From a virus (taxonomy: Duplodnaviria > Heunggongvirae > Uroviricota > Caudoviricetes): a stretch of 39,603 nucleotides of DNA. The stretch is from positions 1-39,603 of IMG/VR virus record IMGVR_UViG_2778261067_000006; one strand, written 5' to 3'. Positions 1-37,170 of this stretch are shown here, in pieces (the stretch's first letter is position 1; each line of letters begins with the position of its first letter). The notes below the pieces were generated by a model that saw nothing but the letters and a program-made list of their open reading frames with translations, searched no databases and was not told where the DNA came from. The position numbers and the translations under genes are program-made.

Positions 1-1248
1 ATGGCACTGAATATACCATTCAGAAATGTGTACTATCGTTTTGCATCCAGTTACTCATTTCTCTTTTTTATTTCCTGGTCGCTGTGGTGGTCGTTATACG
101 CTATTTGGCTGAAAGGACATCTAGGGTTGACTGGGACGGAATTAGGTACACTTTATTCGGTCAACCAGTTTACCAGCATTCTATTTATGATGGTCTACGG
201 CATCGTCCAGGATAAACTCGGTCTGAAGAAACCGCTTATCTGGTGTATGAGTTTCATCCTGGTCTTGACCGGACCGTTTATGATTTACGTTTATGAACCG
301 TTACTGCAAAGCAATTTTTCTGTAGGTCTAATTTTGGGGGCGCTCTTTTTTGGCTTGGGGTATCTGGCGGGCTGCGGTCTGCTTGATAGCTTCACCGAAA
401 AAATGGCACGAAATTTTCATTTCGAATATGGAACAGCGCGCGCCTGGGGATCTTTTGGCTATGCGATTGGCGCGTTCTTTGCTGGCATATTTTTCAGTAT
501 CAGTCCCCATATCAACTTCTGGTTGGTTTCGCTATTTGGCGCTGTATTTATGATGATCAACATGCGTTTTAAATATCAGGATCAGCAGTGCGTAGCGGCA
601 GATGCGGGAGGGGTAAAAAAAGAGGATTTTATTGCAGTTTTCAAGGATCGAAACTTCTGGATTTTCGTCATATTTATTGTGGGGACGTGGTCTTTCTATA
701 ACATTTTTGATCAACAGCTCTTTCCTGTTTTTTATGCAGGTTTATTCGAATCACACGATGTAGGAACGCGCCTGTATGGTTATCTCAACTCATTCCAGGT
801 TGTACTCGAAGCGCTGTGCATGGCCATTATTCCTTTCTTTGTTAATCGGGTAGGGCCAAAAAATGCATTACTTATCGGTGTTGTGATTATGGCGTTGCGT
901 ATTCTTTCCTGCGCACTGTTCGTTAATCCCTGGATTATTTCATTAGTGAAGCTGTTACATGCCATTGAGGTTCCACTGTGTGTCATTTCCGTCTTCAAAT
1001 ACAGCGTGGCAAACTTTGATAAGCGCCTGTCGTCGACGATCTTTCTGATTGGTTTTCAAATTGCCAGTTCGTTGGGGATTGTGTTGCTTTCAACGCCGAC
1101 TGGAATACTCTTTGACCATGCAGGTTACCAGACGGTTTTCTTCGTAATTTCGGGTATTGTCTGCCTGATGTTGTTATTTGGCATTTTCTTCCTGAGTAAA
1201 AAACGTGAGCAAATGGTGATGGAAACGCCTGTACCTTCTGCAATATAG
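1..1248 (+). CDS. MFS permease of the LacY/HcaT-like (oligosaccharide:H+ symporter) type; host flank
   Basis: Complete 415-aa ORF starting at base 1 with many hydrophobic segments. The N-terminal region (FISWSLWWSLYAIWLKG...) resembles LacY and HcaT as I remember them. No phage context. Confidence 0.7.
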   Translation: MALNIPFRNVYYRFASSYSFLFFISWSLWWSLYAIWLKGHLGLTGTELGTLYSVNQFTSILFMMVYGIVQDKLGLKKPLIWCMSFILVLTGPFMIYVYEPLLQSNFSVGLILGALFFGLGYLAGCGLLDSFTEKMARNFHFEYGTARAWGSFGYAIGAFFAGIFFSISPHINFWLVSLFGAVFMMINMRFKYQDQQCVAADAGGVKKEDFIAVFKDRNFWIFVIFIVGTWSFYNIFDQQLFPVFYAGLFESHDVGTRLYGYLNSFQVVLEALCMAIIPFFVNRVGPKNALLIGVVIMALRILSCALFVNPWIISLVKLLHAIEVPLCVISVFKYSVANFDKRLSSTIFLIGFQIASSLGIVLLSTPTGILFDHAGYQTVFFVISGIVCLMLLFGIFFLSKKREQMVMETPVPSAI

Positions 1249-1683
1249 ACGTAAACTCATTCCGGTTGTTGTCGATAGCTCTATATCCCTCAACCGGAAA
1301 ATAATAATACCAAAATGCTTAGCGCGGCTAATAATCGCCTAATCCAAACGCCTCATTCATGTTCTGGAACAGTCGCTCAAATGTACTCAGGATACGCGGT
1401 TCGCTGATTTCCAGGATATTGTCGTAATTCAGCGACCTGTCCCGTGTATCACGGGCCTGCTAATCCATCAAGGAATGCATTGCGGAGTGAAGTATCGAGT
1501 CAAGCCAGATTTCGCGATCAGGATTCTGTGTGATGATTACATTGCCAGGCCCGGGGCTGTTTAGTCATCGCCGCACAGTGCTGAGATTTCAACCTGTTGC
1601 AGGGAAAATGAGTAGATTTAGGGCAAGTGTGCTGCCAAACCCAACTTTTACGCGGGGAAGGTAGATTTCGTTGGAAGGATAAA

Positions 1684-1698
1684 TGGTGTCCCCTGCAG
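1684..1698 (-). other. 3'-terminal tRNA fragment (CTGCAGGGGACACCA on the minus strand); putative attR core
   Basis: The minus strand reads CTGCAGGGGACACCA, which matches the acceptor 3' strand plus discriminator and CCA of enterobacterial tRNA-Arg (argW-like) as I recall it. No upstream tRNA body is present, so this is a fragment. Confidence 0.45.
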
Positions 1699-1771
1699 AC
1701 ATCTACTTGAGGCGGCAGGGGATTGATTGGAATGGTGTTTTTTAGATGTGAAAAATATTTTACCCGCTATT

Positions 1772-1972
1772 TTACCCATTGGCGCGGCTTAAGAGCTTAT
1801 TTTTGAATTCACAATGGTCACGATATAACCATCTTGCTCGCCCGTGGATAACTTTGGCTTTTGGCAGGTCGCCGGACTTAATCCGGTCATAGATGAAGGT
1901 TTTACCGAAGCCAGTATCGGCCATGATGAATTTCAAATCAACCAGTGAATCAGGCTGTAGTTCGTGTTGCAT
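1772..1972 (-). CDS. AlpA-family helix-turn-helix protein (excisionase/regulator-like)
   Basis: 66-aa ORF with the pattern ...FIMADTGFGKTFIYDRIKSGDLP...RARWLYRD..., typical of AlpA/Xis-type small DNA-binding proteins. Lies next to the att-like fragments. Confidence 0.65.
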   Translation of the reverse strand: MQHELQPDSLVDLKFIMADTGFGKTFIYDRIKSGDLPKAKVIHGRARWLYRDHCEFKNKLLSRANG

Positions 1973-1990
1973 GAGTGCTATCTCCGAATA

Positions 1991-2005
1991 GGGAATCGAA
2001 CCTGC
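1991..2005 (-). other. tRNA T-arm-like fragment (GCAGGTTCGATTCC on the minus strand)
   Basis: 14-nt match to the T-stem/T-loop of the same tRNA-Arg-like sequence; the match breaks immediately after, so it is a fragment, not a gene. Confidence 0.35.
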
Positions 2006-2013
2006 AAATCAGG

Positions 2014-2039
2014 TAATAAAAAACCGCCATCAGGCGGTT
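2014..2039 (-). terminator. Rho-independent terminator at the end of the leftward early operon
   Basis: Minus strand reads AACCGCC-TGAT-GGCGGTT followed by a T-run: perfect 7-bp stem with a tetraloop. Confidence 0.6.
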
Positions 2040-2197
2040 TGGTGTTCTTTCAGTTCTTCAATTCGAATATTGGTTACGTCTGCATGTGCTATCTGCGCCC
2101 ATATCATCCAGTGGTTATAGCAGTCGTTGATGTCCTCTGCTTCGATAACCCTGTCGAATGGTTCTCCATTCCATTCACCTGTGACTCGGAAGTGCAT
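2033..2197 (-). CDS. Small hypothetical protein (55 aa), last gene of the leftward operon
   Basis: ATG preceded by GGAGATGATAA; stop overlaps the terminator stem. Below the ORF-track cutoff; hand-translated. Confidence 0.3.
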
Positions 2198-2269
2198 TTA
2201 TCATCTCCATAAAACAAAACTCGCCGTAGCGAGTTCAGATAAAAGAAATCCCCGCGAGTGCGAGGATTG

Positions 2270-2554
2270 TTATTCATTGCTGATATTCACCTTTATCGCG
2301 AACACCTTTACCAGTTTATCACCGAAGTGCGGATGTGTGATTGTCTTGATTTCATATCCGTCATACGGAATATCAATTCTGCGGCTGGAATCGTCGCGCT
2401 TCGGATATCCCTTTGTGATAATCAGGCGGTCATACTCCCGGAACATAATTCGCTTATTCCAGTAGTCATTACACAGGCGATACTCTTCCGTTTTCTCTCC
2501 GCGAATCATGGCATCGAAGTATTCACCTTTGACGGCAAGTTGCAGGTTAGCCAC
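2270..2554 (-). CDS. Hypothetical phage protein, possibly ASCH/PUA-like (DUF3850-like)
   Basis: 94-aa ORF whose start overlaps the upstream gene's end. The motif ...KGEYFDAMIRGEKTEEYR... resembles DUF3850/ASCH proteins from memory. Confidence 0.45.
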   Translation of the reverse strand: MANLQLAVKGEYFDAMIRGEKTEEYRLCNDYWNKRIMFREYDRLIITKGYPKRDDSSRRIDIPYDGYEIKTITHPHFGDKLVKVFAIKVNISNE

Positions 2555-3224
2555 GGTTAACCTCCTGCGGCGGTTCTGGTAGCGGCATCCAGAACAAGGC
2601 GTTCCCTAACCAGGATAAAGTGCCGTCGCTCAACTCCACGTATTCCCCTTGCACCTGTCCTGCCATATACTCACCGTGCTTTGAATAAATTAAAATCCAA
2701 TCATCTTGAGCGGGCATTCGCTCACTACAGCTTATCCAACCATCCGGAGTTACCTGAGAATTGCCATTTACCAAGTCAGCTCGAACATATAGCGTGTCAT
2801 CATGGTGCTGATTGTGGCTGCACCACGTTAATTCGCTTAACTCGCCATCTTCTGGCCATACTCCAGCTGTTTGCAGCCAGATATGGGCTGGCGCATCCTG
2901 GCAAGGTGTATTAACTGGAAACTTGTAAGTTTGGCTTACAGGTTGGCCTCCCTGAAGCATGGCGGCGCGGTGACACCAGATAATCCAGCCAAGCGCCATA
3001 TCCCATGCCATGTATTCTCTATCGCCATTTTTCGCCCTGCGGCGATCTACAGATTCCCCGAAACGCTTCTCCATAAATAATTCATAGGCTGCTCGTTCAT
3101 CCGATACTGCTGCCAGTGATGCCAGTGCAATTCGTGCCAGTTCCATTTGTTCGCCACGGGTAAGCCCGTTTCCAAGCGGATTTTTAATGAATAATTCGAT
3201 ACGTTCTTTGGTAATAGAATTCAT
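2547..3224 (-). CDS. Phage accessory protein with a C-terminal DUF551-like domain
   Basis: 225-aa ORF; the C-terminal W/P/G-rich segment (...DGWISCSERMPAQDDWILIY...WMPLPEPP) resembles DUF551 of lambdoid early regions. Confidence 0.5.
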   Translation of the reverse strand: MNSITKERIELFIKNPLGNGLTRGEQMELARIALASLAAVSDERAAYELFMEKRFGESVDRRRAKNGDREYMAWDMALGWIIWCHRAAMLQGGQPVSQTYKFPVNTPCQDAPAHIWLQTAGVWPEDGELSELTWCSHNQHHDDTLYVRADLVNGNSQVTPDGWISCSERMPAQDDWILIYSKHGEYMAGQVQGEYVELSDGTLSWLGNALFWMPLPEPPQEVNRG

Positions 3225-3736
3225 GCCGCGTTTCCTTCTTTCTTATTAACAATTACACCGTCATATATTTCATTAAGGTGCCCTCTCAACTCCATGCGCC
3301 TTAATGCAGATAACATGTAATCGCATTCAACCTGCTTATTTCCAGTAAATGGCTTATCGTCAGGATTACCCCAACAGCAATTACCCTTGGGCCACCCATG
3401 TACTTTCCGTACTCTTCCGTTAACAACGTGAAGTAATCCCCAGCCAGGTGGTAAATCCTCAATTGAAATAATTCCCGGCTCACTAATAAAGAATCGCCAG
3501 TCGCCCATTCCAAGAGACGGATTTTTACGAAAACGCTTTTTTCTATCTGCCAACAAGTCAGCACGAGAACATTTCGCCTCTATCAGGCATGATGCTGAAT
3601 TTCTGAATCCCATAGCATCTGGCTGTTCTCCGGTACTGGTTACAGCTATAAAGCGGTCATGAAAACAAACCTTGAACCCGTTGCGCTTAAGGAATTTGTA
3701 CGCAATCTGACAGAGTTCGCGGTGTGTTAACGCCAT
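3221..3736 (-). CDS. Hypothetical protein with a PD-(D/E)xK-like motif
   Basis: Start placed at the internal ATG (3736) with an AAGGAG SD 7 nt upstream, which also removes the overlap with the upstream gene. Motif ...PDAMG...(12 aa)...LIEAK... is suggestive only. Confidence 0.45.
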   Translation of the reverse strand: MALTHRELCQIAYKFLKRNGFKVCFHDRFIAVTSTGEQPDAMGFRNSASCLIEAKCSRADLLADRKKRFRKNPSLGMGDWRFFISEPGIISIEDLPPGWGLLHVVNGRVRKVHGWPKGNCCWGNPDDKPFTGNKQVECDYMLSALRRMELRGHLNEIYDGVIVNKKEGNAA

Positions 3737-3737
3737 A

Positions 3738-4259
3738 TCACTCTCCTTTGATGCGAATGCCAGTAGCGCGGATTGCATCGATGACTTCAGAAACTTTGTA
3801 TGCCATTACCGTTTGGTAATCATCGTGAAAATCTGTTCGATGAAGCATGCTGCTACGTTCCGGGAGCAGTATTTCCCGCTCCTCCAGTTCTGCTATGCGC
3901 TTACTTCCATCCGCGATTACTCCCTCGTAATACTCGCGTTGCTCGTTGAGTTTTGATTTTGCTTCCTCAAGCTCAACACGCAGTTTCCCTACCGTTAGCG
4001 CAATATCCTCGTTCTCCTGGTCACGGCGTTTGATGTATTGCTTGTTTCTTTCCCGTTCATCCAGCAGTGCCAAAGAAATCTTTGGATTAAAGGCAGCAAT
4101 AAATTCAGCGTTGTTTTTCAGAACGTGTTGCGCAATGGCCTGACTACTTAGTCGGACCTCATAACCACGTGCGCCACGGTGTGGTTTATATGAGTCCCAG
4201 TCTCCCCACGTTGCTTTCTCTGCCGCTTCACGCAGTGCCTGATAGTCAATCTTGTTCAT
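3738..4259 (-). CDS. Ead/Ea22-like early-region protein
   Basis: 173-aa acidic coiled-coil-rich ORF; N-terminus MNKIDYQALREAAEKATWGDW resembles the Ead/Ea22 family of lambdoid phages. Confidence 0.55.
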   Translation of the reverse strand: MNKIDYQALREAAEKATWGDWDSYKPHRGARGYEVRLSSQAIAQHVLKNNAEFIAAFNPKISLALLDERERNKQYIKRRDQENEDIALTVGKLRVELEEAKSKLNEQREYYEGVIADGSKRIAELEEREILLPERSSMLHRTDFHDDYQTVMAYKVSEVIDAIRATGIRIKGE

Positions 4260-4260
4260 G

Positions 4261-4563
4261 TCACATCACCCTGAATCCGTTGCATTTACGTAAGAAATCG
4301 CAGATGTAGCCCTTCATTTTTTCGTGCCAATCTCGATCATTCCCATTGCACCAACCATCAGGTGGAGTCCAGTTTTCTATCAGAGCAGCCATTTTCTTTG
4401 CTTTCGCCGGAGTAGCTGTTGCGGTATCGCAGTAATGACGAGTGTCAACCAAAGCATCCATACCATCGATATCAAGTACGCAAAACCATGTGTGATTCGG
4501 AATTCCTACAGGTGGTATTTGTTGCCCACGTCGACGTTTATCAATAAGATATACACTCACTGC
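4261..4563 (-). CDS. Hypothetical early-region protein
   Basis: ORF-track ORF 4261..4581; likely GTG start at 4563 preceded by AAGGAGG. Confidence 0.45.
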
Positions 4564-4720
4564 TTGCCTCCTTTGCGCCACATCGCATTCAGATATTTGT
4601 TTTGATTTACTGACGGAAAAGAATTTCTCTTAAGCAATTCCTCTCTCGATGGCATTGGCTTTACGCGTTTGCGAATAATCATTTCTGCCGGAAGAATGCC
4701 GGGATTGTATGCAAGTCATC

Positions 4721-5002
4721 TCATGATTTACTCTCCACGAACTGGTCAATAGCCATGCTAAGTGATACACCTAAAGTCTCGATATGCTGCTGAATATCCT
4801 GTAGCGTCTGCGCCTGAGATAACAGGATTTCACGGTTGCATAACTCTTTGACCAGATGCTCAAACTTGCTGTAATAACCGATACGGCTTAGTGTTTCTTT
4901 CCCTGCATTCTCGCCTTCTTTGATAATTCCTCTTTCACTAAGAATCAGGTCGTGTTTGGTTCCGGTAATAACGTATTTGCCGAGGTCGATGTTTAGCTTC
5001 AT
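4721..5002 (-). CDS. Hypothetical early-region protein (93 aa)
   Basis: Intact ORF in the leftward operon; no family recognised. Confidence 0.45.
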   Translation of the reverse strand: MKLNIDLGKYVITGTKHDLILSERGIIKEGENAGKETLSRIGYYSKFEHLVKELCNREILLSQAQTLQDIQQHIETLGVSLSMAIDQFVESKS

Positions 5003-5018
5003 TGTTAATTACTCCATG

Positions 5019-5333
5019 TTAATTTATTCGTATGCCTGCTCTTTCTTCATCGAGTTTTTTTAGCTTGTATCGCATAGCTCTTACTGAATAAATTGAGCGG
5101 CAGGTTGCAATTGCTATTTCTTCTGCGGAGAACTTACCGAAAAGTGATACTTCGGCTCTTGTCCATCGTCTTCCACGAAGTCGGCTAACAATGTCAGCGC
5201 CAATCCTTGTTGCTTTCGCCATTACTGCTTTTTCAGTCCTTTCCAGTTTTTCAGCGATAACTTCAACTGGCATTGTCGCCGCTACTTCGCGCAAGAAATC
5301 GACTTCCCATTTCTCCCAAGGAGTCTTTTTCAT
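5019..5333 (-). CDS. Hypothetical early-region protein (104 aa), basic, possibly DNA-binding
   Basis: Intact ORF in the operon; no family recognised. Confidence 0.45.
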   Translation of the reverse strand: MKKTPWEKWEVDFLREVAATMPVEVIAEKLERTEKAVMAKATRIGADIVSRLRGRRWTRAEVSLFGKFSAEEIAIATCRSIYSVRAMRYKLKKLDEERAGIRIN

Positions 5334-5344
5334 AGGCGATACCG

Positions 5345-5833
5345 TTATTTGATAAGAAGTGAAGGTTTCCCAACCTTGAGTTGAGCGCCTGGGATATTTA
5401 TTCCTGCTTTTAGTTGGTGCTTGATTGCCAACTTGTCGGCTTTAATTGTCGTTTCAAACTCAACGTATTCAGGAGGAAGGGCGCTTGAGTCGATGATTTC
5501 TACAGTTTCTGACGGTTTGCGGATTGTTACCTGGTGAATACCTGCTCGCATCTTTTTCTTGCCAACCATTTCAAGCGATGACGCTATATACGCCATAATG
5601 CTGTCAATCTTATTTTGAATTACTGCGGCTCGCTCATTTAGTGACTTTGCCTCTTCCTTGAGGCGTTCAGCATAACCAGATTCATTTTTAATGACGGAAA
5701 GAAGTTGCTCTATTTTATCGGTAAATTCTCCTTCCATGCCTTCTATTGTGTCAGCAATCATCTCTGGTTCTAAATCTGAATCCATCAATTTTGCGTATTC
5801 ATTGGCTATTTCATACAGTTTGCTCACTGGCAA
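5345..5833 (-). CDS. Gp157-like protein (Siphovirus_Gp157 family), recombination-module associated
   Basis: 162-aa acidic N-terminus/coiled-coil ORF immediately downstream of RecT; this family is commonly paired with RecT/Erf. Assigned from memory. Confidence 0.45.
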   Translation of the reverse strand: MPVSKLYEIANEYAKLMDSDLEPEMIADTIEGMEGEFTDKIEQLLSVIKNESGYAERLKEEAKSLNERAAVIQNKIDSIMAYIASSLEMVGKKKMRAGIHQVTIRKPSETVEIIDSSALPPEYVEFETTIKADKLAIKHQLKAGINIPGAQLKVGKPSLLIK

Positions 5834-6722
5834 CCTCCAGTTTCGCTTTGCATTCTATGTAAATGGCTTGTACGTTCTGCTGCAATTTCATTCCAGATGT
5901 CAGGCGATATGCTTCTGCAAAATATCGCTTCAAATCATCCATGTTTTCTGCCTGAGCCATTTCATCACAAAGAAGTTGTGCTTTATCCGTTATTTCCTGC
6001 TGGCGTTTCCGTTCATCTTCGCGGATATCTTCCTCTGATTTGTGCGGCATAACTGGTTCAGTCCACACACCTTCTTCTTCGTTTAGTACGTGAATAGCAC
6101 TATCAAGACGTGATGCCTTAGGCCAATACTTGCTTGCACGCTTTACGACCGTCTTTCGCGCCATCTCATTCCAGTGATTTACCCATGGTCCTTTATCGCT
6201 GAATGCCGCCTTGCTTGTTTTCCTTACAGCCTCAATTTCAGCCAGACTCATCTCTTCCGTTAGATAATCACCTGCTGGCGTCTTAACTGTGCAGTAAACG
6301 CCAACGATATCACCACGATCACCGAAGGCGTTGTATTTATGGGTTGGTGCTTTATCAAGCCCGTTTGACTCATAGGTATCGTTAGCATGAACAATTTTTG
6401 CCTGACCCCATGAGATAACACCAGACTCCATTGCAATATGGAGCAATCCCATATAGCTGATATCAAGGCAAACCATGCCATCGCGCGGAACCAGATAAGC
6501 CAGTTTGCTTGCAGGGTTTAAGGTGATGCCGATCGCCGCAACATTGATGATGGCGTTCTGTGCGCTGGTTGGATTTGCCAGTGCCGTTTTAGCCAGGTAA
6601 TCATTTTTCTGGAAATACTGAATTGCAAACTGGCTTTCCTTAGCCCATGTCACCGTATGTTCAGTCAATGCTCCGCAGAATAACTGCTCTTGCTGTTTAA
6701 CGAATTCAACGATATTGCTCAT
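5811..6722 (-). CDS. recT: RecT/Bet-family single-strand annealing recombinase
   Basis: 303-aa ORF; segment GPWVNHWNEMARKTVVKRASKYWP parallels RecT GPWVTHWEEMAKKTAIRRLFKYLP. Confidence 0.85.
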   Translation of the reverse strand: MSNIVEFVKQQEQLFCGALTEHTVTWAKESQFAIQYFQKNDYLAKTALANPTSAQNAIINVAAIGITLNPASKLAYLVPRDGMVCLDISYMGLLHIAMESGVISWGQAKIVHANDTYESNGLDKAPTHKYNAFGDRGDIVGVYCTVKTPAGDYLTEEMSLAEIEAVRKTSKAAFSDKGPWVNHWNEMARKTVVKRASKYWPKASRLDSAIHVLNEEEGVWTEPVMPHKSEEDIREDERKRQQEITDKAQLLCDEMAQAENMDDLKRYFAEAYRLTSGMKLQQNVQAIYIECKAKLEVASEQTV

Positions 6723-7030
6723 GCTGCTTCTCCAAAAATGTGTCTGCGTTTGAATATTGCGAAGGCATATTCAGCCTTAACTCTTTTGGTTATTGCATCC
6801 CAGAACCATTCAGCGGCTTTTTCCTGATAGTCACAGTCATCATCTTCCAGCCAGTCGATAGCGTCCTTAGTGTGTTCATCTGGTTTATATGAGCGAAGCA
6901 TTTCGCTTATTGGGTCGCAACGTTTGCAGAGGCGATCAACTTCACTGTTGATTCGTTCGTAATCTTCATCAGTAAAACTTGCGATTATTTGCGATATTTC
7001 ACGCTTATCATTCAGAGTCAGAATCATCAT
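6719..7030 (-). CDS. Hypothetical early-region protein (103 aa)
   Basis: Intact ORF; its stop overlaps the recT start (translational coupling). Confidence 0.45.
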   Translation of the reverse strand: MMILTLNDKREISQIIASFTDEDYERINSEVDRLCKRCDPISEMLRSYKPDEHTKDAIDWLEDDDCDYQEKAAEWFWDAITKRVKAEYAFAIFKRRHIFGEAA

Positions 7031-7111
7031 CTTTCTCCTGTTCTTTGTGCTGATTGAGCATTTTGTTCATCTGACGAATGAATTCTTCGTCTGACCAGTT
7101 ATCTGTAAAAC

Positions 7112-7282
7112 TCATGGGCGGCCTTGTTGTTTCAAAATATCCCAAAGCTTTTCGAGCAAACTTTTCATTCTTGGTTGTTTAAAGTCTGCTCCGGTTAAAA
7201 TATTCTTTCGTGAATGCTGTACCGATAAAATCGGGTTGAAAGGGCGAACCGATGCCGCCCCTGCAATAGCGAACTGTTGCAT
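7112..7282 (-). CDS. cIII: cIII-like protein (FtsH inhibitor-like)
   Basis: Start taken at the internal ATG (7282) with a GGAG SD. MQQFAIAG... and ...SLLEKLWDILKQQGRP resemble lambda CIII (MQYAIAG ... RLIDILNQPG). Position between N and the recombination module fits. Confidence 0.55.
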   Translation of the reverse strand: MQQFAIAGAASVRPFNPILSVQHSRKNILTGADFKQPRMKSLLEKLWDILKQQGRP

Positions 7283-7489
7283 AGGATGCTCCTTCTGTTT
7301 GATTGCATAACGAAAACGCCTCAAGTGAAGCGTTATTGGTATGCATATAAAAAAGCCATCACATAGGAGGGCAAAGAAGATTTCCAATAATCAGAACAAG
7401 TCGGCTCCTGTTTAGTTACGAGCGACATTGCTCCGTGTATTCACTCGTTGGAATGAATACACAGTGCAGTATTTATTCTGTTGTTTATG

Positions 7490-7517
7490 CTAAAAATAAA
7501 GGACGACTATGCGTCCT
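7490..7517 (-). terminator. Intrinsic terminator inside the leftward operon
   Basis: Minus strand: AGGACG-(loop)-CGTCCT followed by TTATTTTTAG, directly after the stop of the 7522..7887 gene. Confidence 0.5.
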
Positions 7518-7521
7518 GAAA

Positions 7522-7887
7522 TTACTTAACCAATGATGCTGCATATTCGATAAGGTAAAGTTTTGGAGCAAGCCAAATTTTCAGCCAGTCGAAATAATTG
7601 AAGAAAACAACAATAGAAGTAATCGCTATTCCTGATGTAACAAGTAGTGATAAAAGAACAATATCTGCATCATCTCCTTTATTCCATGCAAAAATCATCA
7701 GATAAACACACGCTATAATCACCAATACACAGATAGCCTGAATTCCAGCTGATGATACGGCGTGCCACATCAAAAGCTGATGGATGACATCAGGAATCTG
7801 TGCCTGGCTAAATGAAACAGCCGCGTCTATTCCATTGCTGGCTTTTTGCAGTAGTTCTACGAGAATCTTGTTTGCTTGTTCTTCCAT
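7522..7887 (-). CDS. Small integral membrane protein (121 aa) in the sieB-like position
   Basis: ORF with an AAGGTGA SD; soluble N-terminus followed by two to three hydrophobic helices; flanked on both sides by terminator hairpins. Confidence 0.55.
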   Translation of the reverse strand: MEEQANKILVELLQKASNGIDAAVSFSQAQIPDVIHQLLMWHAVSSAGIQAICVLVIIACVYLMIFAWNKGDDADIVLLSLLVTSGIAITSIVVFFNYFDWLKIWLAPKLYLIEYAASLVK

Positions 7888-7928
7888 ATATCACCTTGAT
7901 TGTAATAAGCATGAAATTATTTACGGCT

Positions 7929-7959
7929 AAAAAATAAAGGCCACCATCAGGCAGCCTTG
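7929..7959 (-). terminator. Intrinsic terminator after the ral-position gene
   Basis: Minus strand: 9-bp stem (two G-U pairs), loop TGAT, then TATTTTTTA; the loop overlaps the stop codon of the 7947..8198 ORF. Confidence 0.45.
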
Positions 7960-8198
7960 TTGTAAATGTTGCAGGTATCAAGTAAGTAATTAGATGGAGC
8001 GCCATAAATTATGAATTCATCGTTTGTCGGGTCCATCTCCATCTCTTGGCCTATTGCCATTCTTGCGTCAGTGTCATCAGCGGCGAAGCATAAAACAGCC
8101 CACGCACCCATTGTTTTAAAAAGAACTGCAATTGGCTGTGGTTTTACTGAATTTGCGTTAGCGCGAAAATCATAAATCGCACTTTCATGAAATTCCAT
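7947..8198 (-). CDS. Hypothetical early protein in the ral/gene-17 position
   Basis: 83-aa ORF immediately downstream of N; no family recognised with confidence. Confidence 0.45.
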   Translation of the reverse strand: MEFHESAIYDFRANANSVKPQPIAVLFKTMGAWAVLCFAADDTDARMAIGQEMEMDPTNDEFIIYGAPSNYLLDTCNIYNKAA

Positions 8199-8206
8199 AT
8201 ATCACC

Positions 8207-8506
8207 TCAAATAAGTGGTTTGCTGCCTAATTTCATTTTCTGGCGACCAACACAAGTCACACCCATTTCACTGCGTGGCTTGCGGTAGTAAATACGATTC
8301 TGTTTACTCTCGACTTCTTCTGTCTTCTTGCAGCGAAGGCTTCCGAGTGATGCTGCTTTGTCTGCTCTGACGCAACCAGAGAGCTTTAGCGCAATTTTTC
8401 GCGCCAGTCGCTGTTCTTGCATTGCCTGTTCACGTTGATCCTGTCTGCGTGCTCTGCGGCGATTTCTGGCGTTATCGTCAGCCAGATATGTAATGACTAC
8501 TGTCAT
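8207..8506 (-). CDS. N: Antitermination protein N
   Basis: N-terminal arginine-rich motif (NARNRRRARRQDQRE); C-terminus ...YYRKPRSEMGVTCVGRQKMKLGSKPLI parallels lambda N ...WYSKPGERGITCSGRQKIKGKSIPLI; GGAGGT SD. Confidence 0.85.
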   Translation of the reverse strand: MTVVITYLADDNARNRRRARRQDQREQAMQEQRLARKIALKLSGCVRADKAASLGSLRCKKTEEVESKQNRIYYRKPRSEMGVTCVGRQKMKLGSKPLI

Positions 8507-8648
8507 GTTGACCTCCGATGATTGACTTTGGCGATTGGATGGCCGGTGCTGAACTCCGGCTTATTTACAGGCACCTTGTTCTCCCGAAGCTCTCCTGCGC
8601 GCATCAGCCTGCGCATTCATCCAATCCCAAAGCCAACTACTCTTTGGT

Positions 8649-8689
8649 TCCCGCATTTCGGCGGGACAATCCCATCAATGTTAAAGAGC
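8649..8689 (-). promoter_or_regulatory. nutL (boxA GCTCTTTAACA plus boxB hairpin)
   Basis: Minus strand has the boxA consensus followed by the hairpin TCCCGC-CGAAAT-GCGGGA, in the N leader; an almost identical copy lies downstream of cro. Confidence 0.7.
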
Positions 8690-8736
8690 CTGCCAATCTG
8701 TTCCGTTTGGCTTCCAGCGTCCTGCTGATGGCTAAA

Positions 8737-8833
8737 GAATACTGTAGGTATTTTATTGTGTAAATACCCAAGGTATTTATTTTTGATGAAATAATGATAA
8801 ACAAATGAATACAAAGGATATTTATTTTTTCGC
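8737..8833 (-). promoter_or_regulatory. OL operators (three AATAC-N5-GTATT-type sites) with PL
   Basis: Sites at 8737-8753, 8762-8778 and 8817-8833 (the third degenerate). Minus strand has -35 TTTACA, a 17-nt spacer and -10 TATTCT overlapping them. Confidence 0.55.
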
Positions 8834-8908
8834 TGTCTGCTTGTTCAGTGATTTTTATGCGGGATATGTGAAGTGGATCCCGATAGCTATTGCTGCCGGG
8901 ATTATGGG

Positions 8909-9277
8909 TTAGTCAGCGAAGGTTAAGACGAGAATTACCTTAATGATGTCTGCTACAACAGACACGGCCATAGATAAACCAAAGACGATCCAAGCCACAG
9001 TGATGTCTTCACTACCATCGTATAGAGTTCCGTAATCACTGGTGTAAGGCGTAAATGTCGCGCCTTGATACAATAGGTATAAGCTTGATCCATAGAGGAT
9101 AAATGCAGATATCCCTTGTATTGCTATGATCACAAGAATCATGAAACGAGCTGATCTATGCGCCCAAGCCTGGCTTATTTTTTCTGATAGAGATTTCGCA
9201 ATAAAAGCATGCGCTAAGCCGTAAATTGTCGAGATTGCCAACATCGCAAAAAAGCTTGCTATAGCGGTTCCAACCAT
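8909..9277 (-). CDS. Small three-helix integral membrane protein encoded immediately downstream of cI
   Basis: ORF-track ORF 8909..9298 begins at a TTG overlapping the cI stop; an in-frame ATG at 9277 has an AAGGGG SD. Three predicted TM segments; same strand as cI with no terminator between. Confidence 0.55.
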   Translation of the reverse strand: MVGTAIASFFAMLAISTIYGLAHAFIAKSLSEKISQAWAHRSARFMILVIIAIQGISAFILYGSSLYLLYQGATFTPYTSDYGTLYDGSEDITVAWIVFGLSMAVSVVADIIKVILVLTFAD

Positions 9278-9294
9278 AATCGCCCCTTGCGTGA

Positions 9295-10011
9295 TCAAAC
9301 CAGCCTTAGTTTTGTCTCAATTGCAACGCCTATAATCTTGCAGTTTCCATTGATTGGCACGAGAGGCCATGCAGGATTAAGTCCCTTGAGGTATTTATTT
9401 CCGCCGTCGATTATCAGCTTCTTGAATGTTGCTTCGTTAGAGTCAGAAAGTTTTGCTATGACCAAGCTGCCGTTGATCGCCTCCCTTCCGGTATCGAAAA
9501 GAACGAATGTTCCCTCTGGAATGCTTAACCCAACCGGTGCCGTCATTGAATCACCTTCCACTTTAAGCCAAAACGCATTACCTTGAATATGCGCGTCAGA
9601 CTCAAGCCAAACATCTATGTCTTTAATGGTGTATGGTTCGCATGCTTCACACCACGAGCCAGCCTGGATACTGCTTAACACCGGATACCTCTTTCCTGCT
9701 CTGTATTCCCCTGCATACCTTACGTTGGCATCGCTCTTAAGGCTTTCTGCCTGTTCTGCAACCTTGGCAGCAATTGACTGGCTAAAATCAGCAATTGAGA
9801 CTTGCAACAATCGCGCAAAACCAGATGCAACCTCAACGTTTAGCGCGTTTCTGCCATTAAGATAATGCCCTACCGCTCCTTGGGTGATACCCAGTTCATC
9901 AGCGATTGAGTATTGGGTTATTCCCAATTCTTTCTTTTTTGACTCATACAAAGCCTTAAGCCGCTTAGCGTCTTCGAGCTGTTCTGTCGTCAGTGATTTT
10001 TTATTTTCCAT
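9295..10011 (-). CDS. cI: CI repressor (lambda-type, HTH N-terminus and LexA-like autocleavage C-terminus)
   Basis: 238 aa; ...LTTEQLEDAKRLKALYESKKKELGITQ... parallels lambda CI ...[27 protein letters not shown]...; C-terminal ...FWLKVEGDSMTAP... carries the S24 peptidase motif. Confidence 0.9.
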   Translation of the reverse strand: MENKKSLTTEQLEDAKRLKALYESKKKELGITQYSIADELGITQGAVGHYLNGRNALNVEVASGFARLLQVSIADFSQSIAAKVAEQAESLKSDANVRYAGEYRAGKRYPVLSSIQAGSWCEACEPYTIKDIDVWLESDAHIQGNAFWLKVEGDSMTAPVGLSIPEGTFVLFDTGREAINGSLVIAKLSDSNEATFKKLIIDGGNKYLKGLNPAWPLVPINGNCKIIGVAIETKLRLV

Positions 10012-10045
10012 AGCTTAATTCTAATAGCTAAGGTACTTAAACTAA

Positions 10046-10087
10046 AAATACCCTGAGTATTGATTGCTTTGAATACCTGTAGTATTC
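10046..10087 (+). promoter_or_regulatory. OR operators (two clear AATAC-N5-GTATT sites) overlapping PR
   Basis: aAATACcctgaGTATTg (10046-10062) and GAATACctgtaGTATTC (10071-10087); putative PR -35 TTGATT and -10 TATTCT overlap them. Confidence 0.55.
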
Positions 10088-10117
10088 TTTGTTCATGGTT
10101 AATAACGGAGAGTGCAT

Positions 10118-10312
10118 ATGATTCGAATGACACTTGCCGATTACGCCAAAATCCATGGACAGGCTAAAGCAGCCAGTGACTTTGGTGTAATCCAGTGCGC
10201 TATCAGCAAGGCCATTCTGGCAGGCCGTAACATTATGGTTACGGTAAAGCCTGATGGCAGTGTGATTGGAGAGGAAGTTCGTCCTTTCCCAAGCAACAAG
10301 AAAAACAAATAG
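10118..10312 (+). CDS. cro: Cro repressor
   Basis: [24 protein letters not shown]...RPFPSNKK parallels lambda Cro [25 protein letters not shown]...KPFPSNKK; ATG at 10118 with GGAG SD. Confidence 0.85.
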
Positions 10313-10319
10313 TAACACC

Positions 10320-10362
10320 GCTCTTTAACAGTCATGGTCCTTATTCCCGCCGAAATGCGGGA
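10320..10362 (+). promoter_or_regulatory. nutR (boxA GCTCTTTAACA plus boxB hairpin)
   Basis: Same boxA and identical boxB hairpin (TCCCGCCGAAATGCGGGA) as nutL, just downstream of cro. Confidence 0.7.
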
Positions 10363-10420
10363 ATACAACGCGCATCAGTTGGTGCGCATAACTTCTTATT
10401 TGTTAAGGAAATACTTACAT

Positions 10421-10699
10421 ATGCAACTTACAAGTACTCGCAAGAAAGCGAATGCAATTACAAGCAACATCCTAAATCGAATTGCTGTACGTGGTCAGCG
10501 AAAGGTTGCTGATGCATTAGGGATCAATGAATCGCAAATTTCGCGATGGAAAGACAGCTTTATCCCAAAGATGGCCATGCTTCTGGCTGTACTGGAGTGG
10601 GGTGTTGAAGACGAGGAGTTGGCGGAACTGGCTAAGAAAGTAGCCAGAATGCTGACAAAAGAAAAAGCCCCGAAGAACGGCGAATTCTTCGAGGCCTGA
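10421..10699 (+). CDS. cII: CII transcriptional activator
   Basis: ...ESQISRWKDSFIPKMAMLLAVLEWGVEDEE... parallels lambda CII ...KSQISRWKRDWIPKFSMLLAVLEWGVVDDD...; start placed at the internal ATG. Confidence 0.8.
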   Translation: MQLTSTRKKANAITSNILNRIAVRGQRKVADALGINESQISRWKDSFIPKMAMLLAVLEWGVEDEELAELAKKVARMLTKEKAPKNGEFFEA

Positions 10700-10733
10700 T
10701 GTAGAAAGACTGGATCAATCCACAGGAGTAATT

Positions 10734-10898
10734 ATGACAAAACGTCGTAAGAAATACCAGGAAAAAGAAGAGATTCGACACCCTGATTCACCTGAGGGAT
10801 TAGTGGTAGCCGCAGCAAATAACAGGGCGTTCGCAGAGCGCCTTGTTGGTGTTTACAGACTAGCCAAAGCAGGAGTGAAACATGGGCGTCGTTAAGTT
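10734..10898 (+). CDS. Small basic hypothetical protein (54 aa) between cII and the replication initiator
   Basis: Hand-translated; ATG with AGGAG SD 6 nt upstream; its 3' end overlaps the O-like gene start. Confidence 0.35.
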
Positions 10899-11772
10899 AG
10901 CTGATTACAGGCATAACCCTGTACAACATCAGGAGGCATCCAGTATGGGGTATGTCTCTATACACCGCCAGTTTATGGACAGCAGGCTCTATAAGGACTC
11001 TCAGGCAGTACATCTTTGGCTTCACTTAATCCTCAAGGCTAATCACGAATCTACTGTCGTCAATACGGATATCGGTTCGATAACTGTTGATCGCGGTCAG
11101 ATGATAACTGGACGCCCGTCGCTGGTCAGAGAAACATTCATCCCCGACAACAAAGTTCGGAGCTTATTACGGACTTTTGAGTCGAAAGGTATGCTTAATA
11201 TTTGCTCGATGGGGAAGAAATTTAGCCTGTTTACAATCGTTAAATATGACGATTTTCAGGCAAAAAATTGTCCAACGGTTGTCCAACGGTTGTCCAACGC
11301 AAACACCAGTAATGGTGCGGCTCTCAGCGGAGATTGTCCAACGGTTGTCCAACGGTTGTCCATAAACAATAATATAAATAATATCTCTAATACTGACGTA
11401 TTAGAGAGTGCCACAGCAGACAAAAAGTCTGACAAGAAAAAACCTTCCGTCAGCTGTCAGGATGTTGTCGATGCTTACCACGAAATCCTTCCTGAAGCGC
11501 CAAGAATACGCGCACTGAATGACAAGCGTAAAAACCAGATCCGAACGTTCTGGCGCAAAGCCGGAGTGATAACCCGCCAGCTTGACGGGCATGGGTTCAC
11601 GATGCAGGACTGGAGAAATTATTTGAGCTACGTAGGCGAAAATTGTCGATGGATGTTCGAAGAGCGTCCAAACCATCAACGCGGAACTGTCTGGCACAAA
11701 AAGGGATTTGATTTCCTGCTTAACGATAATACCTACCTGAAAGTTCGTGAGGGTGAACACGATGACCGATAA
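10882..11772 (+). CDS. Replication initiator (lambda O / P22 gene 18-like) containing the origin
   Basis: 296 aa; direct repeats inside the gene translate to CPTVVQRLSNA/CPTVVQRLS, as in lambda O where iterons sit inside the gene; lies upstream of the helicase. Confidence 0.7.
   Translation: MGVVKLADYRHNPVQHQEASSMGYVSIHRQFMDSRLYKDSQAVHLWLHLILKANHESTVVNTDIGSITVDRGQMITGRPSLVRETFIPDNKVRSLLRTFESKGMLNICSMGKKFSLFTIVKYDDFQAKNCPTVVQRLSNANTSNGAALSGDCPTVVQRLSINNNINNISNTDVLESATADKKSDKKKPSVSCQDVVDAYHEILPEAPRIRALNDKRKNQIRTFWRKAGVITRQLDGHGFTMQDWRNYLSYVGENCRWMFEERPNHQRGTVWHKKGFDFLLNDNTYLKVREGEHDDR
11268..11410 (+). repeat. Origin of replication: six direct iterons (TTGTCCAACGG) in two clusters followed by an AT-rich tract
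   Basis: Copies at 11268, 11279, 11290, 11334, 11345 and a partial at 11356; then AACAATAATATAAATAATATCTCTAATA. Confidence 0.7.
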
Positions 11773-13274: not shown

Positions 13275-13715
13275 ATGAAAAAACTAACCTTTGAAATTCG
13301 ATCTCCAGCACATCAGCAAAACGCTATTCACGCAGTACAGCAAATCCTTCCAGACCCAACCAAACCAATCGTAGTAACCATTCAGGAACGCAACCGCAGC
13401 TTAGACCAGAATCGAAAGCTTTGGGCTTGCCTTGGTGACGTCTCTCGTCAGGTTGAATGGCATGGTCGCTGGCTGGATGCAGAAAGCTGGAAGTGTGTGT
13501 TTACCGCAGCATTAAAGCAGCAGGACGTTGTTCCTAACCTTGCCGGGAATGGCTTTGTGGTAATAGGCCAGTCAACCAGCAGGATGCGTGTAGGCGAATT
13601 TGCGGAGCTATTAGAGCTTATACAGGCATTCGGTACAGAGCGTGGCGTTAAGTGGTCAGACGAAGCGAGACTGGCTCTGGAGTGGAAAGCGAGATGGGGA
13701 GATCGGGCTGCATGA
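13275..13715 (+). CDS. ninB: NinB (Orf-family recombination mediator)
   Basis: Sequence MKKLTFEIRSPAHQQNAIHAVQQILPDP... matches lambda NinB as I recall it. Confidence 0.85.
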   Translation: MKKLTFEIRSPAHQQNAIHAVQQILPDPTKPIVVTIQERNRSLDQNRKLWACLGDVSRQVEWHGRWLDAESWKCVFTAALKQQDVVPNLAGNGFVVIGQSTSRMRVGEFAELLELIQAFGTERGVKWSDEARLALEWKARWGDRAA

Positions 13716-14239
13716 CTATCAAATCAAATACGCCAGCACACGACAAGGACTGCTGGCAAACGCCGCTTTGGCTTTTTGATGCACTGGATATTGAGTTTGG
13801 ATTCTGGCTGGATTCGGCAGCGAGCGACAAAAATGCTCTGTGTGCTCACTGGCTAACTGAGGCCGACGACGCGCTCAATTCTGAGTGGGTAAGCCACGGT
13901 GCAATCTGGAATAACCCACCGTACAGCAATATCAGGCCGTGGGTGGAAAAAGCCGCTGAGCAGTGCATACAACAGCGACAGACGGTAGTTATGCTTGTGC
14001 CAGAGGATATGTCAGTCGGATGGTTCAGCAAGGCTCTGGAGAGTGTCGACGAAGTTCGCATTATCACTGATGGACGGATTAATTTTATCGAACCATCGAC
14101 AGGGTTGGAGAAGAAGGGAAACAGCAAAGGCTCCATGCTGCTGATTTGGCGACCGTTCATCAGTCCTCGACGGATGTTTACTACCGTATCCAAAGCGGCA
14201 TTGATGGCGATCGGGCAGGGCGTCAGGAGAGCGGCATGA
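13712..14239 (+). CDS. Phage-type DNA N6-adenine methyltransferase (Dam family)
   Basis: WNNPPY motif, [13 protein letters not shown]-terminal motif; ATGA overlap with ninB stop. Confidence 0.75.
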
Positions 14240-37069: not shown

Positions 37070-37132
37070 TATGTATTGATTGTGGTTGCATTGTAATTAC
37101 ATCTATTTTTATATTTACGCATATATTCTTAA

Positions 37133-37169
37133 AACAAGCCACCTTTTAACAAGGTGACTTGTTTTTTAT
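37133..37169. terminator. Terminator hairpin between convergent tailspike and acyltransferase genes
   Basis: AACAAGCCACC-(loop)-GGTGACTTGTT followed by TTTTTAT; A-run on the other side. Confidence 0.5.
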
Positions 37170-37170
37170 G

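Follow-up and report, generated by a model that had tools for sequence, protein, structure and literature searches.

Gene structure and operon context of the locus

In this study, the gene content, relatives and probable roles of positions 2270-3736 were investigated within a window of 39,603 nt, by which we mean the whole stretch of DNA that was analysed. The element that harbors this locus is an intact P22-like prophage of Escherichia sp. MOD1-EC6021 and a full-length relative of CPS-53/KplE1 of E. coli K-12, with which it has TorI (100%) and IntS (99%) in common. We established that positions 2270-3736 are filled exactly by three open reading frames, all of them on the minus strand, which were designated g3 (3736-3221, 171 aa, ATG start, taken from the list of open reading frames and from reading of the sequence), g2 (3224-2547, 225 aa, ATG start) and g1 (2554-2270, 94 aa, GTG start). 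The ATG of g3 lies 1 nt past the TGA of an Ead/Ea22-like gene (3738-4259, minus strand, 173 aa, Pfam Ead_Ea22 E 1.2e-36), with AAAGGAGAG 5' of it as the Shine-Dalgarno site. The stop of g3 overlaps the start of g2 by 4 nt (ATGA), while the stop of g2 overlaps the start of g1 by 8 nt (GTGGCTAA), with GGAGG 5' of the g1 GTG; these two overlaps bear out the original prediction that the three genes are translationally coupled.

On the source contig, GCA_002965245.1, genes called independently gave identical products of 171, 225 and 94 aa. For each of g1, g2 and g3 the homologues number in the hundreds to thousands and display invariant residues, so that these reading frames are not chance ones. 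Other starts were considered and rejected: a g3 start at 3778 (185 aa) disagrees with the 171-aa product called independently, with the N-termini seen in homologues and with the Shine-Dalgarno site. For g2, a shorter form of 199 aa given by NCBI was set aside, given that residues 1-43 of the 225-aa product have matches among other phage families and that this longer product agrees with the ATGA overlap. Antisense open reading frames in 2258-3080 were without support, no Rfam family was detected in positions 1-11000, and no tRNA was found in the whole window.

The start of the leftward operon is marked by an N-like antiterminator gene (8207-8506, minus strand, phrog_271 E 3.8e-36), and cI and cII were located at 9295-10011 and 10334-10699, respectively. 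All genes in the stretch of this operon from N to the three genes are on the minus strand; RecT (5811-6722) and a Gp157/Gam-like gene (5345-5833) were recognized, and no recognisable exonuclease was found between N and xis. In positions 1250-4400, no sigma-70-like site was detected, as compared to 5.7 expected. Directly 3' of the g1 stop, a pattern scan disclosed two tandem terminator-like hairpins matching the consensus (2268-2247 and 2236-2217, minus strand), and these are followed by a frame of 55 aa (2030-2197, minus strand, phrog_676 E 1.3e-38, also called independently on the source contig), which is the last gene of the leftward operon. After this frame, the same kind of scan found a terminator-like hairpin with a T-run (2021-2040, minus strand), beyond which lies xis/torI (1772-1972). 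The three genes had been assigned to the distal end of the N operon, and their far-end placement in an operon that begins with an N-like gene holds, but they do not form its very end, because the two hairpins, the 55-aa frame and the third hairpin separate g1 from xis. The 55-aa frame was also considered as YpdJ of CPS-53 and rejected, as no similarity was observed between them.

Families and predicted folds of the three products

When g1, g2 and g3 were searched as single sequences against the PDB, only chance-level matches were obtained, and none of them matched an NCBIfam or PADLOC model; g3 likewise had no Pfam match at E <= 0.1. At the level of phage protein families, g3 matches phrog_9263 and phrog_631, and its product is 100% identical to Upf89.0 of phage P7 and to gp12 of Shigella phage Ss-VASD, both of which follow an Ead/Ea22-like gene in their own genomes and carry no annotation beyond 'unknown protein function' or 'hypothetical protein'. 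The family is large, with about 3,265 clusters at 50% identity.

A PD-(D/E)xK motif had been noticed in g3 by the original prediction, and our data agree with this call. The putative catalytic motif, D40...E53-x-K55, is encoded at 3572-3619, and among 65 diverse relatives D40 is invariant, with E53 and K55 conserved in at least 90%; in all, the invariant or near-invariant residues comprise E37, D40, E53, K55, D60, D64, K67, R70 and R81. The AF2 model (pLDDT 81.5) displays an αβββαβ core whose elements (helix 5-18, strands 22-25, 41-45 and 48-54, helix 58-65 and strand 80-85) fit the PD-(D/E)xK core, whose D opens strand 2 and whose (D/E)xK lies in strand 3, and the top-ranked Foldseek matches in the PDB were the PD-(D/E)xK nucleases AF1548, R2 endonuclease, Hjc, Bax1 and NucS, although the similarity to these solved structures is weak (E >= 0.018, TM <= 0.35). 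Much stronger matches were obtained from the predicted viral structures of BFVD, where 17 reached E <= 1e-3 and the named ones were 'MmcB-like DNA repair protein' (E 7e-7 to 5e-5). Again, the family profile of g3 matched PDB entry 3dnx with E 8.9e-5 over profile positions 12-69, with ...D...IExKxSRxDFxxD aligned. Taken from sequence conservation and the model, g3 is predicted to be a PD-(D/E)xK nuclease-fold protein with intact active-site residues, and the fold call is supported.

With reference to named families, 7 of the 65 relatives weakly matched PF06319 (MmcB-like, best E 6.5e-5), 12 weakly matched PF01870 (Hjc, best E 1.3e-4), and Pfam UPF0102 was also matched among them. MmcB, a PD-(D/E)xK endonuclease, has been linked to the repair of crosslinks (PMC9578287). 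The MmcB-like proteins (PF06319; 3dnx, SPO1766; Caulobacter MmcB) and g3 have the PD-(D/E)xK core in common, together with the extended motif D...(I/L)E-x-K-x-S-R-x-D-F/L-x-x-D, whereas the g3 family harbors a conserved C-terminal half of its own (GMGDWRF, LPxGWGLL, KPFxxNKQxE, ALRR) and is phage-borne in early operons, MmcB being an SOS-regulated chromosomal gene. We read g3, from its sequence, as a sister family of the MmcB-like proteins and not as a member. Archaeal Hjc (PF01870) resembles g3 in being a small, single-domain PD-(D/E)xK protein, and in the alignment D40, E53 and K55 of g3 fall on the PD...ExK residues. However, g3 was not assigned to the Hjc family, since it has no PF01870 match itself and the scores are weak (E ~0.7 for the profile against Hjc chains, TM 0.2-0.36); moreover, its helix 1 carries a near-invariant His5 in place of the usual acidic residue.

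The product of g2 had been called DUF551-like, and this was verified, as Pfam DUF551 (PF04448) matches it with E 1.1e-10 and 42.6 bits against a cut-off of 22, over aa 162-220 (nt 2565-2741) and the whole of the 68-position model. The C-terminal unit (aa ~84-225) has at least 90% identity with many relatives and the N-terminus is variable; several different PHROGs match along the length of the protein, with mosaic breakpoints at aa ~57 and ~84. Its relatives number at least 7979, with lengths of 194-394 aa, and nearly all those among the matches listed carry DUF551; the domain is C-terminal in all the relatives scanned, and the homologues are already labelled by domain in RefSeq. The same C-terminal position is found in YfdS of CPS-53, the EaA-like proteins of P22 and variant V2 of Ea22, which are encoded in the same part of lambdoid/P22-like early-left operons and differ from g2 in the N-terminal part, which in g2 is mosaic. 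An equivalence of g2 and YfdS was rejected, because the two have 21% identity with a pairwise E of 0.03, confined to DUF551.

In the case of g1, the match to phrog_625 is strong (E 6.6e-50) and RefSeq names the homologues 'ASCH domain-containing protein', while the Pfam ASCH model (PF04266) gives 14.2 bits, below its gathering cut-off of 21.2, over residues 6-28 only, and is weakly matched by 17 of 42 homologues (best E 0.029). A shallow profile of g1 retrieved nothing from the PDB sequences. This single-domain protein displays the octapeptide G19-E-K21-T-E-E24-Y-R26 (GxKxxExR), encoded at 2477-2500, of which G19, K21, E24 and R26 are all invariant in the 42 homologues; this octapeptide is placed at the helix1-strand2 cavity of ASCH proteins (PMC6803910). 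The AF2 model (pLDDT 85.7) is a beta-barrel of the ASCH/PUA-like fold, and the best 13 Foldseek matches in the PDB were all ASCH proteins (3iuw with prob 0.99, 2z0t, 1xne, YqfB, ZmASCH, 1s04), followed by YTH domains, with the ASCH matches themselves weak (E >= 0.014, TM 0.42-0.59). The presence of GxKxxExR and the exclusively ASCH best matches support the ASCH/PUA-like call of the original prediction.

Among ASCH proteins, g1 has the same beta-barrel fold as the GKER types (TthASCH 2DP9, EOLA1, ZmASCH and E. faecalis 3iuw), and EOLA1 carries GxKxxExR at the same positions. As compared to these, g1 with its 94 aa is among the shortest, is phage-encoded and falls below the Pfam gathering score. 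YqfB, a GKTR-type N4-acetylcytidine amidohydrolase, also has the same fold (9kyh, 9kyf) and a similar size, with K21 and R26 conserved; its catalytic nucleophile is Thr24 in a Thr-Lys-Glu triad (PMC6972931). In g1, the invariant Glu24 replaces this nucleophile, so that g1 does not belong to the enzymes of the YqfB type. A 2026 preprint assayed 19 ASCH proteins, GKER types included and none of them from a phage, and every one removed ac4C34 from bacterial tRNA in vitro, with the motif Lys and Glu being essential for the removal (bioRxiv 10.64898/2026.02.27.708502). Literature searches on ASCH with prophage or anti-defence yielded no work on an ASCH protein from a phage. A correspondence of g1 to YfdT of CPS-53 was also considered and rejected, as no similarity was detected.

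Absence of conserved linkage among the three genes

The three genes had been described as an accessory trio, and a trio in the functional sense did not hold up when their neighbourhoods were compared. Among 80 viral contigs with a g3 homologue, a DUF551 gene was found within 4 kb in 14, a count made with a profile built from close relatives so that divergent copies may be missed, a g1-type ASCH gene was found in a single contig, and both were found in none. No phage or E. coli record harbors at least 80% of positions 2200-3800 in one place, and parts of this stretch are present in 3786 of 5426 E. coli genomes. Distant homologues of g3 and g1 occur singly, either in nin regions or in virulent phages. 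The idea of a conserved partner upstream of g3 was rejected, as the 131-aa proteins encoded there, next to g3 homologues in Morganella and in a virulent phage, are mutually unrelated. The genes recombine independently among phages, and each of them is cargo that enterobacterial phages very commonly carry and shuffle separately from the others.

Neighbouring genes may still be functionally linked to some degree, because the gene order Ead/Ea22, g3, DUF551 recurs in Ss-VASD and the adjacency of g1 and DUF551 is common in E. coli prophages. In P7, an Ead-like gene is followed by Upf89.0, and the next gene, Upf89.5, has no DUF551 match.

Probable roles and meaning for phage biology

We consider it fairly probable that g1, g2 and g3 are independent, widespread accessory genes in a variable segment of the leftward operon, with candidate roles as a nuclease (g3), an ac4C or RNA protein (g1) and an adaptor (g2). 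The segment would be the variable 'ea / exo-xis-equivalent' part of the leftward early operon. Most E. coli genomes contain the exo-xis/ea cargo region, which occurs in Shiga-toxin prophages as well. Transcription would run from PL under N antitermination and translation would proceed by coupling, and the products would therefore be made early in lytic growth or induction. Judging from sequence and model, g3 may belong to the MmcB/Hjc branch of the PD-(D/E)xK superfamily and act as a DNA endonuclease that depends on Mg2+, expected to cut branched or damaged DNA in early phage replication and recombination. By analogy with the assayed proteins, g1 could be a GKER-type ASCH enzyme or binder, for which N4-acetylcytidine hydrolysis is the most likely activity, with either free ac4C or the ac4C wobble base in elongator tRNA-Met of the host as its substrate, and otherwise RNA binding may be its function. 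The mosaic g2 would be a modular adaptor, in which the conserved DUF551 unit provides a common binding function and the swapped N-terminus changes the partner.

It is rather unlikely, in our estimation, that anti-defence or host takeover is the function of one or more of these genes, for example with g3 degrading host or competitor DNA, or g1 binding or destroying a modified nucleotide or RNA used in defence. The genes are early, non-essential-looking, fast-shuffling cargo, among which counter-defence genes have been found in phage accessory-gene screens (bioRxiv 10.1101/2023.04.06.535777), but in the papers retrieved on ASCH, on DUF551, on the exo-xis region and on accessory or counter-defence genes of phages, no counter-defence link was found for these families. 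Their folds act on nucleic acids, and PUA/ASCH-clan domains bind modified nucleotides including the m6-dAMP defence alarm (bioRxiv 10.64898/2026.01.15.699771), but the closest named relatives of g3 are repair-type nucleases, and the genes do not travel together in the census of 80 contigs. The lack of a match to the PADLOC defence models also counts in this direction, as absence of evidence only.

A role in the lysis-lysogeny decision or in host replication appears quite unlikely as well. Reported regulators of this kind are ea22, orf60a, orf61 and orf63 of the lambdoid exo-xis region and yfdQRST of CPS-53, which includes the DUF551 protein YfdS; overexpression of yfdQRS or yfdQRT inhibits the initiation of chromosomal replication (PMC4776307), and DUF551 also occurs in an Ea22 variant and in YfdS (PMC10834534). 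The genes studied here are found at this same place in the genome, immediately behind an Ead/Ea22-like gene, in a prophage with the TorI and IntS of CPS-53. However, the likeness of g2 to YfdS is weak and limited to the DUF551 part, no relation exists between g1 and YfdT, a regulatory role is not an obvious one for a nuclease or an ASCH enzyme, and neither ASCH, DUF551 nor the g3 nuclease is mentioned in those exo-xis papers and the phage accessory-gene screen that were consulted.

We regard as improbable a bolder proposal in which g1 acts as a phage 'eraser' or sponge of a modified nucleotide and g3, separately, represents a large phage nuclease family without a curated model, sister to MmcB. 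As an eraser, g1 would strip ac4C early from the wobble base of host elongator tRNA-Met, by which host translation would be retuned or sabotaged; as a sponge, it would sequester a modified nucleotide that serves as an alarm signal, such as defence systems with PUA domains sense. That g3 is the absent exonuclease partner of the RecT of this phage is highly improbable, for although RecT and the Gp157/Gam-like gene are present without a recognisable exonuclease between N and xis and the superfamily fold of g3 is that of lambda Exo and RecE, the identical protein occurs in P7 and in Ss-VASD, which has its own annotated exonuclease adjoining RecT, no RecT lies within 4 kb of the g3 homologues in the 80 viral contigs, and the closest relatives of g3 are endonucleases of the MmcB/Hjc type, not Exo/RecE.

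As matters stand, the favoured view of independent accessory genes will not surprise a phage specialist, and the main gain of this study is in annotation. For a 'hypothetical protein' that is very common in Stx, P22-like, P1/P7 and many virulent phages, the label of an MmcB/Hjc-like PD-(D/E)xK nuclease is now available, as predicted from its sequence and model, and a common 94-aa ASCH protein of prophages is placed in the GKER subgroup, whose assayed members deacetylate ac4C. If either activity were true, it would give biochemistry its first point of entry into the exo-xis/ea cargo region, of which little is understood.

Gene structure and operon context

Three adjoining minus-strand ORFs, referred to here as g3, g2 and g1, occupy the whole of 2270-3736, which confirms the three genes observed in the original prediction. 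The g3 gene (3736-3221, minus strand, 171 aa) has an ATG preceded by AAAGGAGAG and located 1 base past the TGA that closes the Ead/Ea22-like gene upstream (3738-4259, minus strand; Pfam Ead_Ea22, E 1.2e-36), the ATG of g2 (3224-2547, minus strand, 225 aa) shares ATGA with the g3 stop, and g1 (2554-2270, minus strand, 94 aa) displays a GTG start after GGAGG and an 8-nt overlap with the g2 stop. The same order was recovered by independent gene calls on the public contig corresponding to the window (GCA_002965245.1, Escherichia sp. MOD1-EC6021), with products of exactly 173, 171, 225, 94, 55 and 66 aa followed by cscB. The genes were correctly described as coupled and as lying close to the far end of the N operon, given the map of the N-like antiterminator (8207-8506), cI (9295-10011) and cII (10334-10699), the strand layout, with RecT (5811-6722) and a Gp157/Mu Gam-like gene (5345-5833) upstream on the same strand, the lack of promoter-like sites in 1250-4400 (0 found versus 5.7 expected by chance), and three terminator-like hairpins on the minus strand (2268-2247, 2236-2217 and 2040-2021; consensus matches in a pattern scan). 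The true last gene is nevertheless a fourth small gene; the hairpins bracket a 55-aa ORF (2030-2197, minus strand, phrog_676) between g1 and xis, and this layout in 2030-2268 is similar to that of the lambda tL terminators. No Rfam families were found in 1-11000, and no tRNAs in the window.

A comparison with the K-12 cryptic prophage CPS-53/KplE1, at 1772-1972, 38446-39603 and 1-1248, shows that the excisionase matches TorI with 100% identity and the integrase matches IntS with 99%. The window therefore represents an intact P22-like prophage related to that remnant, harboring the P22 portal, P22 coat, a tailspike head-binding domain, Arc/Mnt repressor genes and an O-antigen-type acyltransferase. 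It adjoins cscB, which encodes a sucrose permease, at the place taken by dsdC in K-12. Between the tailspike gene and the integrase gene, an Acyl_transf_3 gene (37171-38232, minus strand, E 1e-29) falls in a stretch of abruptly raised AT content (GC 0.31 in 37001-38000) and is likely an O-antigen acyltransferase, i.e. a lysogenic-conversion gene. The nin region carries a Dam-type N6-adenine methyltransferase gene (13652-14239, plus strand; Pfam Dam, E 9e-65), and a 129-aa ORF (8909-9298, minus strand; phrog_6534, without a Pfam match) lies directly downstream of cI, a position that in lambdoid phages holds lysogen-expressed exclusion genes such as rex and sieB.

Fold assignments of the encoded proteins

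The three fold or motif calls proposed for g3, g2 and g1 were confirmed. The g3 protein had no match in Pfam, NCBIfam or PADLOC and was assigned to phrog_9263 and phrog_631, each of unknown function; all 324 relatives from a word-indexed search are unnamed and show no Pfam domain where they align with g3, and 3,265 representatives of a 50%-identity library matched the g3 profile at E <= 1e-3. D40 never varies among 65 diverse relatives, and conservation reaches at least 90% for E37, P39, E53, K55, S57, R58, D64, K67 and R70, giving the extended motif ...GE-x-PD...(I/L)E-x-K-x-SR-x-D(F/L)-x-x-D. The AlphaFold model (pLDDT 81.5) displays the canonical αβββαβ order, with D40 beginning strand 2 and strand 3 carrying E53-x-K55 at its C-terminal end. 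Its best-ranked solved structures are PD-(D/E)xK nucleases (AF1548, R2 retrotransposon endonuclease, Hjc, Bax1 and NucS), with weak matches throughout (E >= 0.018, TM <= 0.35), while 17 predicted viral structures matched at E <= 1e-3, the named ones being 'DNA repair protein MmcB-like' or 'MmcB family DNA repair protein'. In a match that spans the catalytic motif, the family profile reached E 8.9e-5 with 3dnx, an MmcB-like structure, compared with about 0.7 for Hjc; Pfam matches among the 65 relatives were to Hjc (12), MmcB-like (7) and UPF0102 (1). We conclude that g3 is a PD-(D/E)xK superfamily member with a complete catalytic motif and that it is nearest to the MmcB-like family, yet outside the curated PF06319 model. 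According to PMC9578287, MmcB is an endonuclease of the PD-(D/E)xK type and has been linked to crosslink repair.

The DUF551-like call for g2 was borne out by a Pfam DUF551 match (E 1.1e-10; 42.6 bits, cut-off 22) that spans residues 162-220. At least 7,979 relatives exist; among the matches listed they measure 194-394 aa and nearly all carry DUF551, which is C-terminal in all eight relatives where the Pfam scan detected it. Many relatives have residues ~84-225 in common at 90% identity or more and a different upstream part, with breakpoints near residues 57 and 84, and separate segments match different PHROGs. No solved structure related by sequence was found. YfdS of CPS-53 and an Ea22 variant also carry DUF551 (PMC10834534, PMC4776307). 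YfdS bears only weak resemblance to g2 (21% identity).

Pfam ASCH covers only residues 6-28 of g1, with a score of 14.2 bits where the cut-off is 21.2; 17 of 42 homologues match equally weakly, and RefSeq names the homologues 'ASCH domain-containing protein'. The 13 best PDB matches of the AlphaFold model (pLDDT 85.7) are ASCH proteins, including 3iuw (probability 0.99), 2z0t, 1xne, YqfB, ZmASCH and 1s04, followed by YTH domains, which are PUA-like. Together with these matches, the GxKxxExR octapeptide that defines ASCH (PMC6803910), present as G19-E-K21-T-E-E24-Y-R26 with all four motif residues invariant in the 42 homologues, upholds the ASCH/PUA-like call. A YqfB-like identity was ruled out because g1 has Glu in place of the Thr24 nucleophile of YqfB (PMC6972931). 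As 19 of 19 tested ASCH proteins, including the 'GKER' subgroup and no phage protein, are reported in a 2026 preprint to strip ac4C34 off bacterial tRNA in vitro, with the motif Lys and Glu essential (bioRxiv 10.64898/2026.02.27.708502), removal of ac4C34 from tRNA would be the most concrete functional hypothesis for g1.

For the anti-defence or host-takeover role originally suggested, neither support nor refutation emerged: PADLOC gave no match to g1, g2 or g3, and the exo-xis papers checked, an accessory-gene screen (bioRxiv 10.1101/2023.04.06.535777) and the papers retrieved on anti-defence make no mention of their families. Since at least one defence system uses PUA/ASCH-clan domains to sense modified nucleotides (bioRxiv 10.64898/2026.01.15.699771), g1 might, speculatively, be a sponge or eraser of a modified nucleotide.

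Distribution and genomic neighbours

Of 5,426 complete E. coli genomes, 3,786 contain parts of the 1.6-kb block, as do 542 phage records; no genome or record among them covers at least 80% of the block at a single site. Upf89.0 of phage P7 and gp12 of Ss-VASD are each 100% identical to g3 and come after an Ead/Ea22-like gene; the next gene encodes a DUF551 protein in Ss-VASD, whereas in P7 it is Upf89.5, without a DUF551 match. In P7 (AF503408.1, 1159-1175 and 3501-4016) the identical gene belongs to an operon annotated with the C1 repressor operator Op(hea); in this unrelated phage type the counterpart is early and repressor-controlled. A Morganella homologue of g3 (64% identical) lies between NinB and NinG, and other homologues neighbour a PIF1 helicase in virulent phages or come from Ackermannviridae or Vibrio phages; g1 homologues of Erwinia and Lonsdalea prophages occupy the nin region, directly 3' of the replication genes. 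Among 80 viral contigs with a g3 homologue, 14 have DUF551 within 4 kb of it, on one side or the other, one has a g1-type ASCH (a weak match), none has both, and none has RecT. On these distributions, the trio as a functional unit is rejected.

The recombination module (5345-6722) consists of RecT and the Gp157/Mu Gam-like gene, and no exonuclease partner of RecT is recognisable between N and xis (2030-8506); g3 could be regarded as this 'missing' exonuclease, but Ss-VASD, with its g3-identical gp12, has its own exonuclease beside RecT, which argues against it.

The three genes are ordinary, extremely common and independently shuffled early accessory genes. The new content is modest: a widespread 'hypothetical' family, that of g3, is placed in the MmcB/Hjc branch of PD-(D/E)xK nucleases, and g1 in the GKER subgroup of ASCH proteins.
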